Below are positions 4,014 through 23,650 of a stretch of DNA of 39,374 nucleotides, in pieces. Every line of letters starts with the position of its first letter. Position 1 is the stretch's first letter. Below the pieces are notes generated by a model. The model saw only the letters and a list, made by a program, of their open reading frames with translations. It had not been told where the DNA came from and did no database searches. Position numbers and translations under genes: made by a program. Origin of the DNA: a virus (lineage: Duplodnaviria > Heunggongvirae > Uroviricota > Caudoviricetes); the IMG/VR virus record IMGVR_UViG_2913147268_000006, positions 1 through 39,374 of that record, one strand, 5' to 3'.

Positions 4014-4428
4014 GCGTTATCGCACTCCACAGATCATCAAAAGAAATCATTACCGGTCCGTCACGACGCCAGAGAGTGATACTGTTACCCAGTTCATTAA
4101 TCCCGGTGCGGCGGATATCCAGATCAATACGGGACACCACGCCGTCATCAATCATCCATTGCAGGCATTCGCGGATATACCCCCTTACCGTCTGCACCAG
4201 CTGATTGGTCAGTTTGCTGCGCTGAAGCAGCCACAGCCGGGAGCCGTAACGGTCATTCTGTACCGCAGGCCAGGTATCCCCCCACCATCCCATCGGGACG
4301 TCGGCGTTGTCATCAGGCTCCGCCCGCCGCCAGGTAAACAGGGAAATCACCACGGCGCGGGTCAGCGGATCCAGCGGTGCGCTGGCGCAGGTGCGTTTAC
4401 CGTTCACCGTCAGCCACAGTTCCATCAT
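4000..4428 (-). CDS. Mu gp46-like baseplate protein
   Basis: 142 aa; overlapping stop/start with neighbours in baseplate operon. Confidence 0.65.
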   Translation of the reverse strand: MMELWLTVNGKRTCASAPLDPLTRAVVISLFTWRRAEPDDNADVPMGWWGDTWPAVQNDRYGSRLWLLQRSKLTNQLVQTVRGYIRECLQWMIDDGVVSRIDLDIRRTGINELGNSITLWRRDGPVMISFDDLWSAITHGGQ

Positions 4429-4973: not shown

Positions 4974-6052
4974 CAGAACGGGTCCTCCTGTACTCTGGCT
5001 TTTTTCTTTTTCCGCGCGCCGGGGTCTTCGGGTTCAGGCAGATAAGCATCAGGCGGGCCGACACGGATTTCCGTCAGGGTGCCGTTCTGGTCCTGAGTAA
5101 ACGTGACTTCCGAGACAAGCAGTTCGGTATTGTCAAAACCACAGACCGGATCAAAGACAATCACCCGCTGGTTGGGCTGCCACAGCGTACCGTTACCCTG
5201 TCGCCAGCCCTGCACCACATAGGTGGTTTCATCCGTCCGCGCCGCCCGTTGTCGGGCTTCAAAGTCAGCACGCGCAATACAGCCTGCCCCCGTAGCCTGC
5301 CCTGTCTGCCTGATATACATCGGACGGTAACGGGCAATAAATGCGTCCTCTGTGCGGGCCCGCAGCGCGGTGGTGGTGGCCTCACCGAAATCATCGTCGT
5401 TTCCGGCACGCTGCCCCGCCACCTGGTAAACAGAAAACCGCTCCCGGATACTCTTCTCCGTATCACAGGAAAGGATATTTTCCCCAAGTACCAGCGCGGT
5501 ATGTGCCCGCGTTGAGCCAATACCGCCAATCACCAGCCTGCCGTGCGGGTCGTCGTAAGCCAGTGCCTGCTGCTGACCGAGTATTTTGTTGATTACCTCA
5601 ATCACCGTTTCACCGTGATCAGGCTGAACATCAGGAATAACACCCGATGGCGCACCGCTGTTCACCACCTCAATGCCGAAAGGCGCAGCAAGCGCCTGCG
5701 CAATCTGCACCAGCGAGCGTCCGTTAAACTGTGTCGGTTCGGCTGCACAGTCAATCAGGTCAGCCGTCAGACTACGTCCGGCAATACCGGTGCTGACCGA
5801 ACGGGCATCGTAATGAACGGGAGTCGCCTCCACCCAGCCGGTGATCACCAGCTCATCACCAATCAGCACTTCCACTTTTGAACCGTTTTTAATGCGCGGC
5901 TGAAGCGTGGTGATACCCTCATCACCCGGCCACTGGCGGGTGATCTCCACACTGAAATCCCGCGCCAGCCGTTCAATACCGGCACCGATGCGCACCGATG
6001 TCCAGCCATTCCACTCCCGGCCATTTACCCGTAGCGTGACATTGTCGTTCAT
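4973..6052 (-). CDS. Mu gp44-like baseplate hub / tail protein
   Basis: 359 aa; position between DNA circulation protein and gpV homologue. Confidence 0.6.
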   Translation of the reverse strand: MNDNVTLRVNGREWNGWTSVRIGAGIERLARDFSVEITRQWPGDEGITTLQPRIKNGSKVEVLIGDELVITGWVEATPVHYDARSVSTGIAGRSLTADLIDCAAEPTQFNGRSLVQIAQALAAPFGIEVVNSGAPSGVIPDVQPDHGETVIEVINKILGQQQALAYDDPHGRLVIGGIGSTRAHTALVLGENILSCDTEKSIRERFSVYQVAGQRAGNDDDFGEATTTALRARTEDAFIARYRPMYIRQTGQATGAGCIARADFEARQRAARTDETTYVVQGWRQGNGTLWQPNQRVIVFDPVCGFDNTELLVSEVTFTQDQNGTLTEIRVGPPDAYLPEPEDPGARKKKKARVQEDPF

Positions 6053-7422
6053 TGCACTGGCACCTTCAGAGGGATCACCGGCACAAAGCCGGGATGCGTA
6101 ATGGCATTACGCCGGATAATGTCCGCGTCACGCGCCGCGTTATCAAACCAGGTCGCCGCCAGCACCAGCGCGGGTAAAACCTCATCCGGTGTGCGCTGAA
6201 TGATCCGTGCAGACTGTTCAAGGCGCGTGTTGATATCCGCATTCAGATCTGCTTTCACCCGGCGCAGCGCCAGAAACAGCGCATCACTGGTTGTACGGGA
6301 CAACTCCTTATCAATTGCCGTATTCAGTGTGTCGCGAATGTCAGTCAGTTCTTCCCACGTCGGCAGGTCAACCGTGTTTTTCACCGCCGGTGCATTGTTC
6401 AGTGCCGGATGCGTGACGGCAGGCCAGCCAGTGCTCTGCGCGGGTGTTGTTGCCTGCCCCACTGCGGAATTCTGCATCACCGCGGAAGTTGTTGGCGCAG
6501 GCAATCGCGTGACGGCATACGCCGCTTCGCTGATTGCGGTCGTACGAAGGGTGCTGGCAACCACGTTACGCTGCTGCGTAGCCGTGGCGGTGGTTTTACT
6601 GTCCGTTTTCCAGACGCCGCGCGGTTGCAGATCGCTGCCGAGGCTGACACCGGAAAGCGTTTTGATCATGGTGACCAGGTCGCTGGCGTTACCATAAAGG
6701 CGTTTCCCGGTACGCCACATTTTCTGCACCTGCTCAACGAAATTTTTGCCTGACGATGGCGGCGGCAGAAGTACCGAGATATCCCCCTGCAACAGCCTGG
6801 CGGCATCCGATACGGTAGAATCCACCACTTTCATCGCATCAGAAACATACCCCAGCATTATGCTGGCATTACCGATAACGTCGTTCTGCACGAAATCCGC
6901 CACGCCATCGATACTGAAACCGCTGAAGCTGTCACTGATGCAGTCATCCAGTGCAGAACAGGATGACATCAGCGTCTGCGCCGTCGCCGCACCTGATGTG
7001 GGGTAAGAGAGTTCTCCCGCTTCGACAAACTTCAGGTCAAAGCGGACAATACGCCCTTCACTTTTCGATGTGCTGACCCGAACTTCCCCGTCAACACAGA
7101 CTTTCATCTCACCGTATGTCGGATGGACAAGCGTGCCGGGACCGGGTTTATTCAGCGCGTCAATCAGGCGATCGCGCTGGTCAAAGCAGTCATCTCCCAC
7201 CACATAAGCTGTGATGGACGGGCGGAAAGTGACTTTTCCCAGATCTTCGGTATAAGGCTTGTCGCGGTTCGGGTATTCATGTGTTTCCACACGGCGACCG
7301 GTTCCCGCACTTTCTTCTTCAACCTTAAACGGCACACCTCGAAATGATGCTTCAAGTAGCTTTTCACGCCAGCCACTTCGAGAATTAGAGGATAGGTACG
7401 AAGAAATATGAGAAAAATCCAT
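6049..7422 (-). CDS. DNA circulation protein (Mu gp43-like)
   Basis: 457 aa; N-terminal region typical of Mu gp43 family; downstream of tape measure. Confidence 0.65.
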   Translation of the reverse strand: MDFSHISSYLSSNSRSGWREKLLEASFRGVPFKVEEESAGTGRRVETHEYPNRDKPYTEDLGKVTFRPSITAYVVGDDCFDQRDRLIDALNKPGPGTLVHPTYGEMKVCVDGEVRVSTSKSEGRIVRFDLKFVEAGELSYPTSGAATAQTLMSSCSALDDCISDSFSGFSIDGVADFVQNDVIGNASIMLGYVSDAMKVVDSTVSDAARLLQGDISVLLPPPSSGKNFVEQVQKMWRTGKRLYGNASDLVTMIKTLSGVSLGSDLQPRGVWKTDSKTTATATQQRNVVASTLRTTAISEAAYAVTRLPAPTTSAVMQNSAVGQATTPAQSTGWPAVTHPALNNAPAVKNTVDLPTWEELTDIRDTLNTAIDKELSRTTSDALFLALRRVKADLNADINTRLEQSARIIQRTPDEVLPALVLAATWFDNAARDADIIRRNAITHPGFVPVIPLKVPVQ

Positions 7423-7440
7423 GGTGTCACCTCAAATAAA

Positions 7441-7470
7441 AACCGCGTGTAAACGCGGTTTTTTATTAGG
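7441..7470 (-). terminator. Intrinsic terminator downstream of cargo ORF 7479-7967
   Basis: Palindrome aaccgcg-tgtaaa-cgcggtt flanked by A/T runs on both sides. Confidence 0.5.
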
Positions 7471-7478
7471 TAATAAAA

Positions 7479-7967
7479 TTAAAGATCATAATCAACATTA
7501 TGAGTATCTATTCTACATGATGAATAAGTAATTCCGCTTTCACCACTAATATTTACGCCAGCCTTTACCTTCCCTGATTTCGTAACATCAACAAAGAATT
7601 GCCCTCTTGGCATTTTAAATGCAAAAGAGAAACCAATAATTTCCGAGTCAAAGTTATTTTCATCCTCACTAATTGGTACAATAAAAGCCAATGGTGCAGA
7701 TTGTGAGTTATTTTCAAAATCAAAAACACCAATACCTTTATTAAACTCGTAGGATGCTTTTTTTATTAAAAGAGTTCCACTTGCCGACTTTGCTGGGCAT
7801 ATTACAGACAGTCTATTTATTCCACCTACATCTAGATCTATATTCTTATCTGCTGAAGTTTTAACGTTATCTATAAAGTATGTAGCAAGCTGCTTTTCCG
7901 TTACTGGCTTCGCAAAGGAGTTTAATGGCAGTCCTGCAGCCAACAACAATATAAACATTTTCTTCAT
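7479..7967 (-). CDS. Secreted protein of unknown function (cargo gene inside tail module)
   Basis: Start taken at MKKMFILLLAAGLPLNSFA (12 codons inside track ORF 7479-8000); AGGAGA Shine-Dalgarno upstream; signal-peptidase I type signal peptide, two Cys; strongly AT-rich versus flanking tail genes. Confidence 0.6.
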   Translation of the reverse strand: MKKMFILLLAAGLPLNSFAKPVTEKQLATYFIDNVKTSADKNIDLDVGGINRLSVICPAKSASGTLLIKKASYEFNKGIGVFDFENNSQSAPLAFIVPISEDENNFDSEIIGFSFAFKMPRGQFFVDVTKSGKVKAGVNISGESGITYSSCRIDTHNVDYDL

Positions 7968-8002
7968 ATTCTCTCCTACATTCAGCACAAACTTTACCAC
8001 TC

Positions 8003-8033
8003 AATAACCCTACTTGATTAAAGTAGGGTTATT
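8003..8033. repeat. Perfect 13-bp inverted repeat (aataaccctactt / aagtagggttatt, 5-nt loop)
   Basis: Seen directly; overlaps stop codon of tape measure gene, immediately upstream of cargo ORF. Confidence 0.6.
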
Positions 8034-9933
8034 ATCGCCTGAATGGAGAATACCCCACATCGTGCGTGATTTTCATCAGGGGATCGGCTTTGCCCGGTAC
8101 ATCAATTATCTTCATGCCTGGCGGAGCATTCTCGAACGTGACTTTCAGTTCGCTGTGCTGTGTCATGGAAGAAGATGGATTCAACAGCGGAACATTGGGT
8201 TTGTACTGACTCAGGCTGGCCTGATACTGCTCGTACTCTTTACGATCAAAAAAAGGCGTCCAGTCTGAAGCCAGAAACAGCCCTTTATTATCCAGCCAGT
8301 TAACTGTATCTTCAGGAACAACACTTTCCAGAGTATCTTTAACCGGCTCATACATCAGGGTTCCCAGAAAACCATATACCCCGGCCTTCCCGATAAAGCC
8401 GCGGCCTTTCCCCATCAATCCCGTTTCTGCCGACACCTTCCCCAGCGTACGCATCTCTCTGGTCACTGCGGTAATGGATTTGGTAACGTCAGCAACCCAT
8501 TTGGTTGTCATAAACAGGGCGATCGCTTTCAGAACAGTTTCCCATCCCCCCATCGCCTGCGCCGTTTCATCCACCACGCGCCAGACTTTTTTTATGACAG
8601 GACCTACGGTTTCCCAGTTATCAATAATGAGGTAAGCGGCACCGACCAGAAGAGCAATCAGACCCTTAGCAGGCGTCATATTCATCACACCGCCGAGAAC
8701 TTTCATGATTCTGGACAAAGAGCCTGCAGCGGCCCCCACTGTCAGTAAAGCCAGACCGATTTTAGCAATGGTCTTAACGAGCTCCGGGTTTTCACGGACA
8801 AACGTTCTCACTTCCTCAAGGAGCGGTTTTACCGCTTCAAGACCATCATTAACCTCAGGAAGAAACGTTTCCCCCAGAGTGGAAGAAATGGCATCAAGTT
8901 GATTTTGCAGAAGTAAAAGCTGGTTTTCCGTCGTCGCTGCCCTCGAAGCATATTCCTTCTGCATCGAACTGCCATACTGCTGGGAATCCGCAACCCGCCT
9001 GAAGTTGGTACGCAACAAATCAAGGTTAGTCAGCAGAGGTGCTATCGCGCCCAGAGACTCTTTCCCGAACAGGGCATTCAGCACAGCTGCCTGTTTTTCT
9101 TTAGGCACTTTAGCCATCGCATCCAGTACAGACAGCATGGTTCCCCGGGCATCTTTCTGCATATCAGCAGCTAATTTCTTCGGATTGATCCGCAGAAAAC
9201 GTAATGCCTGTTTCTGCGATTTTGTCGCTGAATTTCCCGCGGTCAGGGAAAGCATGAAGTTCTTGATCCCTGTGGCGGCAATTTCTGACTCCACGCCCAT
9301 CCCGGCAATGGTTGCCCCCATTGCCGCGATTTCGCCGGAAGCCACACCTGCAACACCACCTAAAGGACCAATACGCGTAACAATATCGGAGATTTTCTTC
9401 GCATTCGCCGGGCCGGTATTACCAAGGTAGTTGATTTTGTCAGCCAGCCCAGCCACTTCATCCTGCGTCATATTAAACGCAGTACGCCACTGGGCCATCA
9501 TCTGCCCGGACTCTTCAGCCGTGGTATCAAAGGCCACGCCCATCTTCACCGCATCAGTGGCAAACTGCATCAGTTCATCACGTGCAATCCCGGCCTGACC
9601 GCCAGCCGCCACAATTTCCGCGATCCCGTCTGCAGACATGGGAAGCTCAGTAGACAAAGCGCGTACCTGCTCCGTCATGGCCTTAAACGCATCCGGCGTA
9701 TCCAGACCGTCCACCACTTTGCGGACATCAGCCATCTTCGATTCAAGGGTGATGGCTGATTTTACAGGGAGTGCCAGTGCCCCCATTATTGCAGTACCCG
9801 CCCCGGCAGCGCCCAGAGCAAGGCTGGAGACTTCTTTCTGAAACCCCTTAAGCTGACGCTGCATACCTTTAAGCGGGCCGGACAGCCTGTCAACGGCGGT
9901 GATGATGGCTTTCAGCTGAAAATTATCAGCCAT
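8032..9933 (-). CDS. Tail tape measure protein
   Basis: 633 aa, Ala/Gly-rich with predicted hydrophobic segments; between tail chaperone and baseplate genes. Confidence 0.8.
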   Translation of the reverse strand: MADNFQLKAIITAVDRLSGPLKGMQRQLKGFQKEVSSLALGAAGAGTAIMGALALPVKSAITLESKMADVRKVVDGLDTPDAFKAMTEQVRALSTELPMSADGIAEIVAAGGQAGIARDELMQFATDAVKMGVAFDTTAEESGQMMAQWRTAFNMTQDEVAGLADKINYLGNTGPANAKKISDIVTRIGPLGGVAGVASGEIAAMGATIAGMGVESEIAATGIKNFMLSLTAGNSATKSQKQALRFLRINPKKLAADMQKDARGTMLSVLDAMAKVPKEKQAAVLNALFGKESLGAIAPLLTNLDLLRTNFRRVADSQQYGSSMQKEYASRAATTENQLLLLQNQLDAISSTLGETFLPEVNDGLEAVKPLLEEVRTFVRENPELVKTIAKIGLALLTVGAAAGSLSRIMKVLGGVMNMTPAKGLIALLVGAAYLIIDNWETVGPVIKKVWRVVDETAQAMGGWETVLKAIALFMTTKWVADVTKSITAVTREMRTLGKVSAETGLMGKGRGFIGKAGVYGFLGTLMYEPVKDTLESVVPEDTVNWLDNKGLFLASDWTPFFDRKEYEQYQASLSQYKPNVPLLNPSSSMTQHSELKVTFENAPPGMKIIDVPGKADPLMKITHDVGYSPFRR

Positions 9934-22258: not shown

Positions 22259-23650
22259 TCACTTAATAGGATTTGGTTTTATGTCGTCAAGCCAGTCGTT
22301 ATCACCTCTTAGCTTGGCTACTCGTCCTTCAACATTAGTTAACGGTTTATAAGCAGAGTATTTGCCTATAGCCCTAGCAGAATGCTCTCCAGCAACACGA
22401 TAATTTTGGAAGTCCAACTCAAGTCCATGCTGCTCCGCTCTCATTCGAATATAACCACGAAGCATGTTTTCTCTAAATCGAAACCAAGATGGACGATTCC
22501 CTAAAGCAGGGATGATGATGCATCCAAATGTCGGTTTCTTCAATGCATTGAACTTTCGCTCAAACGTGGATTTATCTAAAGGTGTTACATCAAGCGATTT
22601 GCAAATTTTAACGTACGATTCTGATATATGAGTCTTATGTCTGGTCAAATCAGCCATATCGGACATAGCCCAAAGAATATGCTTATATGACTCATCACGT
22701 CCCTCTGTTGCATCCGTGTAACTTTGCCTTAAAGTTTCCGAGACTGAATCAATTGCATCATTTAACCCTTTAATGAAAAGGTTGTAATCAACAGAGCTGT
22801 ATTCACGTATTGAGCTTTGACATGTTAAAAGGATTTTTTCACAAATAAGATGAATGTAGTTCGGGAACCCGTCACTAAGACCCGCAATTTTATAGCGGAC
22901 AGAATCATCGACAGTCAGGCCAAACTCATCGAAAGCATTATCAATTATTTGAAAACGACCATTCCATGGTAAACTATCGAGATGTACCTGATGTATTTGT
23001 CGCTCACTTGATTTATGCCCTCCGATTAAAGTAACGAGAGAATCACCAATCCCCGTAAAAATTAATTTTACTTCACACGCCTGATCACCAAGTTGTTTAA
23101 TGAGTGATCCAAACTTTTGTCGTTCTTCATCAGAGTCAATTTGGTCAAACTCATCGATAACTATATAAGGAATCTTTGAGTGAACTTTAGTTAAAAATTG
23201 CAACGCCCGAACGGCTGCAGAAACTGAGTCAATTTTCAGTTCTGGATAATTATATTTTTGATTTTGACCAGCATTGATACCACCAATTCCAGCCACATTT
23301 AAGCCAAAGCTCCATCCCTGTGTATCGATTTTCTTATCCTGAGGTGTGCCTCGCAAAATAATGTCATTCATGACACTTGAAAAAGTGGATTCTTTCTCGC
23401 AGCCAACCAAAATAGGTTCAGCATCTTCCTGCAGCTTAAAAGCAACAGTTTGCGCTAAGGATGTCTTTCCTACTCCGCGATCACCATAAATGAAAGCATG
23501 CCGACCTGTAGCATAAAGCGCCAATTCGAGATCGGTTACATGTTTTTCACGTCCAAATAACAGTTCCATAGAAACAACTGGACCCGTTGGTCGCAAAACT
23601 TTATGCAGTTTATGCATAAAGTCTCGCAAAGAAAGACCTCCACAGAGCAT
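22259..23650 (-). CDS. P-loop ATPase (AAA-like) with uncharacterised C-terminal domain; cargo gene between Q and holin
   Basis: 463 aa; Walker A GDRGVGKTS, Walker B YIVIDEFD; AGGAGA SD 8-9 nt before ATG; AT-rich. Confidence 0.7.
   Translation of the reverse strand: MLCGGLSLRDFMHKLHKVLRPTGPVVSMELLFGREKHVTDLELALYATGRHAFIYGDRGVGKTSLAQTVAFKLQEDAEPILVGCEKESTFSSVMNDIILRGTPQDKKIDTQGWSFGLNVAGIGGINAGQNQKYNYPELKIDSVSAAVRALQFLTKVHSKIPYIVIDEFDQIDSDEERQKFGSLIKQLGDQACEVKLIFTGIGDSLVTLIGGHKSSERQIHQVHLDSLPWNGRFQIIDNAFDEFGLTVDDSVRYKIAGLSDGFPNYIHLICEKILLTCQSSIREYSSVDYNLFIKGLNDAIDSVSETLRQSYTDATEGRDESYKHILWAMSDMADLTRHKTHISESYVKICKSLDVTPLDKSTFERKFNALKKPTFGCIIIPALGNRPSWFRFRENMLRGYIRMRAEQHGLELDFQNYRVAGEHSARAIGKYSAYKPLTNVEGRVAKLRGDNDWLDDIKPNPIK

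Follow-up and report, generated by a model that had tools for sequence, protein, structure and literature searches.

Why should the tail operon of a temperate phage hold, between the gene for its tape measure and the first gene of its baseplate, an AT-rich gene for a protein that appears destined for the periplasm? The question is raised by a stretch of viral DNA of 39,374 nucleotides (nt; Caudoviricetes, IMG/VR record IMGVR_UViG_2913147268_000006, positions 1 to 39,374; hereafter the window), which is a prophage of Escherichia coli. The prophage belongs to the SfV/SfIV type: its early genes are lambdoid, its head resembles that of HK97 and its contractile tail that of Mu; in E. coli DA33137 it adjoins zinT. 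In the window, an open reading frame (ORF) of 162 amino acids (aa), here called the cargo gene, lies between the tape-measure and DNA-circulation genes, on the same strand and inside the late operon. We are highly confident that the gene is real, is kept by selection and is an accessory of an SfV/SfIV-like temperate myovirus, that it sits in a cargo hot spot, and that its product is exported by the Sec pathway and cleaved after Ala19, for which the predicted fold in the periplasm is an eight-stranded barrel with a helix and a probable Cys57-Cys151 disulfide. Superinfection exclusion by such an exported accessory barrel is the best explanation overall, and it is offered as a tentative one that may well prove wrong.

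The cargo gene and its carriers

That the cargo gene is real follows from its intact ORF, its ribosome-binding site, a ratio of nonsynonymous to synonymous substitution rates (dN/dS) of 0.2-0.3 and its presence in the isolated phage vB_EcoM-720R4, which has the same gene in the same place with a 96% identical protein. The dN/dS value was obtained against distant alleles (39-49% identical), for which dS is saturated. On the minus strand the ATG lies at 7967-7965 and the TAA at 7481-7479, and at the 100% identical locus of E. coli DA33137 RefSeq has this very 489-bp coding sequence (CDS). The program-made ORF list starts the gene further upstream, with a GTG at 8000 (173 aa); the ATG was chosen because AGGAGA sits 5 nt upstream of it, at 7977-7972. 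The CDS has a guanine-plus-cytosine (GC) content of 34.2%, and of 24.5% at third codon positions (GC3), against 51.9% for the tape-measure gene and 55.3% for the DNA-circulation gene; the locus has the lowest GC in the 39 kb, and only 0.3% of all 489-bp segments are as AT-rich. The initial annotation, which had credited the gene with its own AGGAGA ribosome-binding site and with a far more AT-rich composition than its flanks, is upheld on both counts.

SfIV has no cargo gene, even though its flanking DNA is 97% identical and its tape-measure protein 99% identical, and its tail genes are about 25 bp apart; SfV and SfII, in which the tape-measure and DNA-circulation genes are directly adjacent, also do without it, as do several sampled E. 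coli prophages. A set of 5,426 complete E. coli genomes includes about 1,094 with the tail module, and 99-101 of these (about 9%) carry the cargo gene, with a variant about 66% identical in DNA in 11 further E. coli genomes. By an estimate from an evenly spaced sample, about half of the E. coli modules with the window's tape-measure type (type A) are free of it. About half of the carriers belong to the sequence type 131 (ST131) clone, and enterotoxigenic E. coli (ETEC) H10407 and avian pathogenic E. coli (APEC) are carriers as well, as are commensal, animal and wastewater strains; the gene is DLJ64_RS02755 (WP_001566765.1) in ST131 and ETEC_RS23655 (WP_000738066.1) in ETEC H10407. As judged from these sequence comparisons, the gene is accessory and not structural, which agrees with its first description as cargo and not as a tail component.

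Variant alleles are also on record. An A7 tract lies inside the CDS at 7763-7769, and one frameshifted allele (P0006, found on 21 contigs) regains its frame at this tract; three others (P0002, P0003 and P0005), all from metagenome assemblies, have internal deletions. Slippage-prone decay, phase variation or assembly artefacts could each account for such alleles. One copy of the gene is plasmid-borne: pEND_Eco 18005 (NZ_CP126947.1: 182075-190557; L017), an IncF plasmid of 205 kb that is conjugative and comes from an APEC strain, holds a complete SfV-like tail module including the cargo gene, and therefore contains an integrated prophage or prophage fragment.

Predicted export and fold of the product

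Judged by the n/h/c layout and the -3/-1 rule, the leader of the cargo protein (MKK, then MFILLLAAGLPL, then NSFA ahead of a Lys) would be cleaved after SFA19, which places Ser at -3 and Ala at -1; the signal-peptidase I type leader recognized at the outset is borne out by these rules and by its conservation across the family. The leader of the window protein has no Cys, hence no lipobox, and the predicted mature protein has 143 aa, a mass of about 15.6 kDa and a pI of about 5.1. In the family alignment all full-length members have the h-region followed by the pattern AxA-K (the hyphen marks the cleavage site), and all keep Cys57 and Cys151 (window numbering) as well as the motifs CPxPSASG, FKMPxGQFFV and AGVNxxGESG. 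The variant of Shigella flexneri and STEC309 (L003:4825-5307 and L016:2943-3425; 48% identical) starts with GTG and has a leader, LTSC-C, that fits a lipobox, and from its sequence this branch might be a lipoprotein instead of a soluble periplasmic protein.

AlphaFold returned a predicted local distance difference test score (pLDDT) of 36 with a 2-sequence alignment, and distant members from an exhaustive HMMER search were needed for a better model. With a 14-sequence alignment the pLDDT rose to 84.9 and the predicted template modelling score (pTM) was 0.78, for a model in which a helix (residues 24-41) precedes eight beta strands. The predicted fold class is a generic calycin-like, eight-stranded up-and-down beta-barrel. 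From the model we infer that Cys57, at the end of strand 1, and Cys151, in strand 8, are neighbours at the closure of the barrel, where a disulfide between them probably staples the first strand to the last.

The initial annotation had assigned no family. In searches with the single sequence and with the family profile, Pfam, NCBIfam, PADLOC and PDB gave no sequence match; the only family match is PHROG 5586, listed as 'unknown function', so that the earlier statement stands. At E <= 1, the 14 family members gave no match to any relevant Pfam model, those for MliC and the lipocalins among them, and when the family profile was compared with E. coli MliC by hhalign, the signal peptides alone were paired (probability 18%). 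A profile match to a conserved tail structural component, the finding that would have spoken for a tail protein, was looked for as well, and the cargo protein matches no tail-protein family in Pfam or PHROGs. The literature returned nothing on the protein accession or on phage 720R4.

The family is small. The exhaustive HMMER search over 1.8 billion representatives gave 17 family hits at E <= 0.001, a word-indexed search found almost exclusively near-identical sequences from E. coli and Shigella, three cargo-family loci came from scanning one genome for each species, and the plasmid and phage collections gave one plasmid-borne copy, inside a prophage tail module, and one phage. The named sources are Escherichia, Shigella, Erwinia and Pantoea. 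Three distant members (P0018, P0020 and P0021; 25-30% identical) lie on phage-plasmid-like contigs, far from tail genes, in a maintenance region with ParA, a CI/LexA-like repressor, IncFII RepA and toxin-antitoxin pairs as neighbours.

The junction, its signals and its occupants

The features of the locus are collected in Table 1. The variable segment comprises the last tape-measure codons, the cargo gene with its signals and about 22 of the first codons of the DNA-circulation gene. No target-site duplication, ends of an insertion sequence (IS) or terminal repeats flank it; transposon- or IS-mediated insertion was rejected for want of target-site duplications and terminal repeats, and the sequence points to exchange of the cargo by recombination within the flanking genes.

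Table 1. Features of the cargo locus, in window coordinates
Feature	Position	Strand	Basis
Cargo CDS, 162-aa pre-protein	7479..7967	minus	ORF reading, RefSeq match, family alignments
Predicted Sec/signal peptidase I (SPase I) signal peptide, codons 1-19, MKKMFILLLAAGLPLNSFA followed by K	7911..7967	minus	n/h/c layout, -3/-1 rule, family conservation
Shine-Dalgarno AGGAGA	7972..7977	minus	read off sequence; 5 nt 5' of ATG
Intrinsic terminator AAAAACCGCGT-TTAC-ACGCGGTTTTT, then ATTT	7434..7464	minus	folding, repeat scan
Perfect 13-bp hairpin, no U-tract, over tape-measure stop codon	8003..8033	minus	z = -4.3, repeat scan
Variable junction segment, about 670 bp (about 95 bp in SfIV)	7375..8046	minus	alignment, megablast coverage breaks
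Tape-measure gene, 633 aa, 'type A'	8032..9933	minus	99% identical to SfIV protein, 24% to SfV protein
DNA-circulation gene (Mu gp43/N-like), first baseplate gene	6049..7422	minus	annotation, comparison

S. flexneri and STEC309 (L003, L016), a metagenomic prophage (L010) and Erwinia sp. S63 (L020) have, at this same junction, versions of the gene that are 39-49% identical to that of the window. The neighbours of these versions have diverged as well (tape measure 56-72%, DNA-circulation protein 53% and tail tube 81-84% identical to the window's), and all these lineages have the window's tape-measure type. The tape measures of SfV and E. coli E7476 are merely 24% identical to it, and the cargo gene was not seen beside the SfV type. 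Because divergent versions share both junction and tape-measure type, long residence combined with loss is favoured, and from these sequences the cargo would be an old resident of the tape-measure block that was lost in about half of its E. coli representatives. Of the earlier view that the gene had been inserted, the presence of an extra gene between tail genes stands, and the gene is better described as one allele of a variable segment of about 670 bp, probably of long residence. The cargo stays at 34-40% GC in every tail context although it has diverged in step with the neighbouring tail genes, and the deviant low GC is also seen in L010, L016 and L020. Two phage-plasmid homologues (L007:740-1270 and L009:2919-3413) match their surroundings in GC (49-55%), and a Pantoea copy (L008:1-452) is AT-rich (34-40% GC) like the copies in tail contexts.

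At the junction of E. coli E7476 that corresponds to window 7423-8031 there is an unrelated ORF of 176 aa (L011:4240-4770, minus strand; 34% GC), a member of PHROG 5485 (WP_000679479.1) with an N-terminal membrane anchor. About 175 complete genomes of E. coli contain the PHROG 5485 gene, whose location at the junction was verified in E7476 alone. Because an unrelated gene, the cargo gene or nothing occupies the junction in different relatives, the sequences identify the site between the tape-measure and DNA-circulation genes as a cargo hot spot. In E7476 a terminator lies 3' of the PHROG 5485 gene, and a plausible extended -10 promoter (TTGTAA-16 nt-TGaTAGAAT) can be discerned by eye 5' of it.

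The cargo gene had also been described as having its own terminator. A strong hairpin is indeed present at its 3' end: its two arms (7438-7448 and 7453-7463) form 11 perfect base pairs ahead of a U-rich tail, the fold reaches -20.4 kcal/mol (z = -6.0; 0 of 200 shuffles fold as well), and the structure lies 15 nt 3' of the cargo stop, with the start codon (ATG) of the DNA-circulation gene and its ribosome-binding site just beyond. A consensus scan missed it, since the stem absorbs part of the T run, and an Rfam scan gave merely sub-threshold terminator look-alikes. Intrinsic terminators, each of different sequence, lie directly 3' of all the homologues that were examined, both those in tail contexts and those in plasmid contexts. 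What did not hold is that the terminator belongs to the cargo specifically, as one is also present in the cargo-free junctions of SfII and E. coli 7784 (L006:4688-4726 and L012, about 4190-4235), where it reads TCCCAC-TCCG-GTGGGA followed by T6; the SfIV junction has none. The terminator of the cargo-free junctions could be the scar of a lost cargo gene or could set expression ratios within the tail operon. With one present in E7476 as well, a terminator characterizes the junction no less than the cargo.

Consensus scans, which may miss a weak or activator-dependent promoter, found no sigma-70-like promoter in the roughly 530 bp of coding strand that precede the cargo gene in the window, nor any upstream of the divergent homologues in L003 and L010. 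A regulatory role for the hairpin over the tape-measure stop codon was considered and given little weight, since the 720R4 allele does not preserve this hairpin and has three uncompensated changes in one arm of it.

The late region has other compositional anomalies. Between the late-regulator region and the holin gene, there is a 463-aa ORF of 37-39% GC (22259-23650, minus strand); its product is an ATPase of the STAND/AAA_16 type, for which PADLOC gave weak hits (mad8, PDC-S01), and it may be a separate defence-type moron. A DUF2441 gene of about 38% GC (20169-20777, minus strand), between the lysis cassette and the HNH/terminase genes, is another compositional island.

Candidate functions and comparison with known systems

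The initial annotation had put forward exclusion or a virulence role purely by analogy. Most characterised envelope-directed genes in coliphage tail regions serve in exclusion or receptor masking. By analogy with these and from its context, the cargo protein may act in superinfection exclusion, and it is conceivable, if rather doubtful, that the periplasmic barrel works by binding or blocking while an infecting phage is at the envelope stage. The protein would be exported by Sec and cleaved after Ala19, and the mature form would fold in the periplasm into a small eight-stranded barrel with an N-terminal helix. The barrel might then hinder the step, performed by tape measure or tail tip, in which the DNA of the incoming phage crosses the periplasm; alternatively, its target might be a host periplasmic factor needed for this crossing, the outer-membrane receptor being left unaltered. 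The constant pairing with one tape-measure type in all four divergent lineages with a tail context fits this reading. A bolder extension, which we consider unlikely, is that the members of PHROG 5586 form a new family of superinfection-exclusion proteins, soluble beta-barrels of the periplasm, that has co-evolved with one tape-measure type and blocks the step of DNA delivery which incoming myoviruses carry out in the periplasm with the tape measure, the junction being a dedicated exclusion slot with PHROG 5485 as its alternative occupant.

Several observations weigh against exclusion. The pairing with one tape-measure type could be explained equally well by physical linkage. Among the 60 best-matching cargo-positive genomes, 7 have more than one SfV-like tail module (mean 1.13, against 1.12 for all records), in a comparison that is confounded by clonality and by order of acquisition; the expectation of fewer co-resident modules in carriers was rejected on these values, and it follows that the cargo is not an absolute barrier to related phages. 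With no promoter found, expression from a repressed prophage has no support in the sequence. The protein matches no PADLOC defence model, PHROG 5586 has no annotated function, a Foldseek search of PDB and BFVD with the model gave no match at E <= 0.001, and the structural matches of the barrel are generic and indicate no mechanism. Among close alleles, dN/dS is about 0.8-0.9 over only about 10 changes, and frameshifted or internally deleted alleles exist.

Should the cargo protein nevertheless block phage entry, it would be a compact, soluble barrier in the periplasm made by a single gene, its carriage by the pandemic ST131 clone and by ETEC H10407 would bear on the host range of therapeutic phages, and it would offer a handle on the poorly understood crossing of the periplasm by Mu-type tails. 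The junction with its alternative occupants is a natural slot in which to find further envelope-acting prophage genes.

Other functions must be weighed against the same evidence. A periplasmic barrel with a conserved cysteine pair could instead bind or inhibit a target unrelated to phages and protect the lysogen in the gut or host. Examples of such targets are lysozymes or peptidoglycan hydrolases, which PliC, MliC and PhiA inhibit, a toxin active in the periplasm, and small hydrophobic ligands of the sort that lipocalins bind. GxW is the lipocalin signature, and the cargo protein, which has no tryptophan, cannot form it; none of the 14 family members matches any Pfam model, MliC and lipocalin included, and against E. 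coli MliC the signal peptides alone are paired (18%). The pathogenic carriers (ST131, ETEC H10407 and APEC) suit such a role, for which lambda lom and bor, envelope morons acting on virulence, are a precedent (PMC3594210), but commensal, animal and wastewater strains carry the gene too, and we judge a contribution to host fitness or virulence improbable. Much the same low expectation attaches to a function in the lytic cycle, in which the gene would be transcribed only with the late tail operon and its periplasmic product would act late in infection, on the timing of lysis, in protection from superinfection or from lysis from without, or in keeping progeny from injecting into lysing cells and debris. 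The strand and position inside the late operon, the scans that found no promoter in the window, L003 and L010, and the place kept beside the same tape-measure type in Escherichia, Shigella, Erwinia and a metagenomic prophage would all be accommodated. Yet cargo-free relatives including SfIV are viable and form plaques (PMC3851460), the distant homologues lie in plasmid-maintenance regions, where activity in the carrier state is expected, and a terminator kept after the gene at every locus is easier to explain if local transcription needs stopping.

It might also be asked whether the gene does anything at all in E. coli. As a neutral or decaying passenger hitch-hiking with the tape-measure block, it would be expected to show what the close alleles do show, namely a dN/dS of about 0.8-0.9, frameshifted (A7) and internally deleted variants, absence from about half of the E. 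coli type-A modules and about half of the carriers in one ST131 clone. This is very unlikely in view of an ORF that has stayed intact over deep divergence (dN/dS 0.2-0.3, dS saturated), of motifs, signal peptide and both cysteines kept across genera and element types, and of a confident AlphaFold model that indicates a foldable domain. The notion of a tail structural or assembly component specific to this tape-measure type is close to refuted: it would account for the position between tape measure and baseplate in four divergent lineages with the same tape-measure type, but SfIV, with a 99% identical tape measure, has no such gene, a cleavable Sec leader would take the protein out of the cytoplasm, where tails are assembled, homologues exist outside tail modules, and no tail family in Pfam or PHROGs is matched.

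Superinfection exclusion is the function of one of the closest known parallels. The cargo gene is an ordinary moron-type gene, of a kind that is well known, from a family that is uncharacterised. For HK97 gp15, the founding moron, exclusion was reportedly described by Juhala et al. in 2000 and by Cumby et al. in 2012. The gp15 gene adjoins the tape-measure gene, and its product blocks DNA entry in a manner that depends on the tail of the incoming phage (PMC3594210). Of the marks by which morons are recognized (PMC3594210), the cargo gene has three, being an extra gene between genes that are adjacent in relatives, with deviant composition and its own terminator, and a fourth, its own promoter, was found neither in the window nor in L003 and L010 by consensus scans. 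The two genes are alike in being extra genes of deviant composition in the tail operon beside the tape-measure gene, dispensable and absent from close relatives, and in having an envelope-directed product, as is predicted for the cargo protein. They differ in that gp15, a small YebO-like protein, resides in the inner membrane and has a promoter of its own, its expression from the prophage being proven, whereas the cargo product is a predicted soluble, exported beta-barrel of 143 aa, with no sequence similarity to gp15 and no promoter detected.

P1, a phage-plasmid, encodes the exclusion protein Sim, which is processed and periplasmic, and T4 Sp and Imm are periplasm- or membrane-located blocks to phage DNA entry. 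The periplasmic effector HxsA of the HXS system has been shown experimentally to arrest phage DNA entry (PMC13128918). All of these are processed at a signal peptide or located in the envelope, as is predicted for the cargo protein, and stop infection after adsorption, and the phage-plasmid origin of Sim is matched by the distant cargo homologues on phage-plasmid-like contigs. None has a detectable sequence relation or a specific structural relation to the cargo protein; HxsA, moreover, needs maturation by a radical S-adenosylmethionine (rSAM) enzyme and has HxS repeats, which the cargo protein does not have. The PliC, MliC and PhiA inhibitors are set apart by the empty Pfam search, MliC included, and by the hhalign comparison in which the signal peptide alone aligns; the cargo protein is larger and has an extra N-terminal helix, and its structural matches to these inhibitors are no better than those to avidins or to de novo designed barrels.

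In P2-like phages, the Z/fun and TO regions are cargo hot spots. The junction described here differs from these and from lambda lom and bor in its site, between the tape measure and gp43, and in the proteins encoded. It resembles them in being a fixed site in a late or tail operon that receives alternative, unrelated AT-rich genes, the counterpart here being PHROG 5586, PHROG 5485 or nothing.

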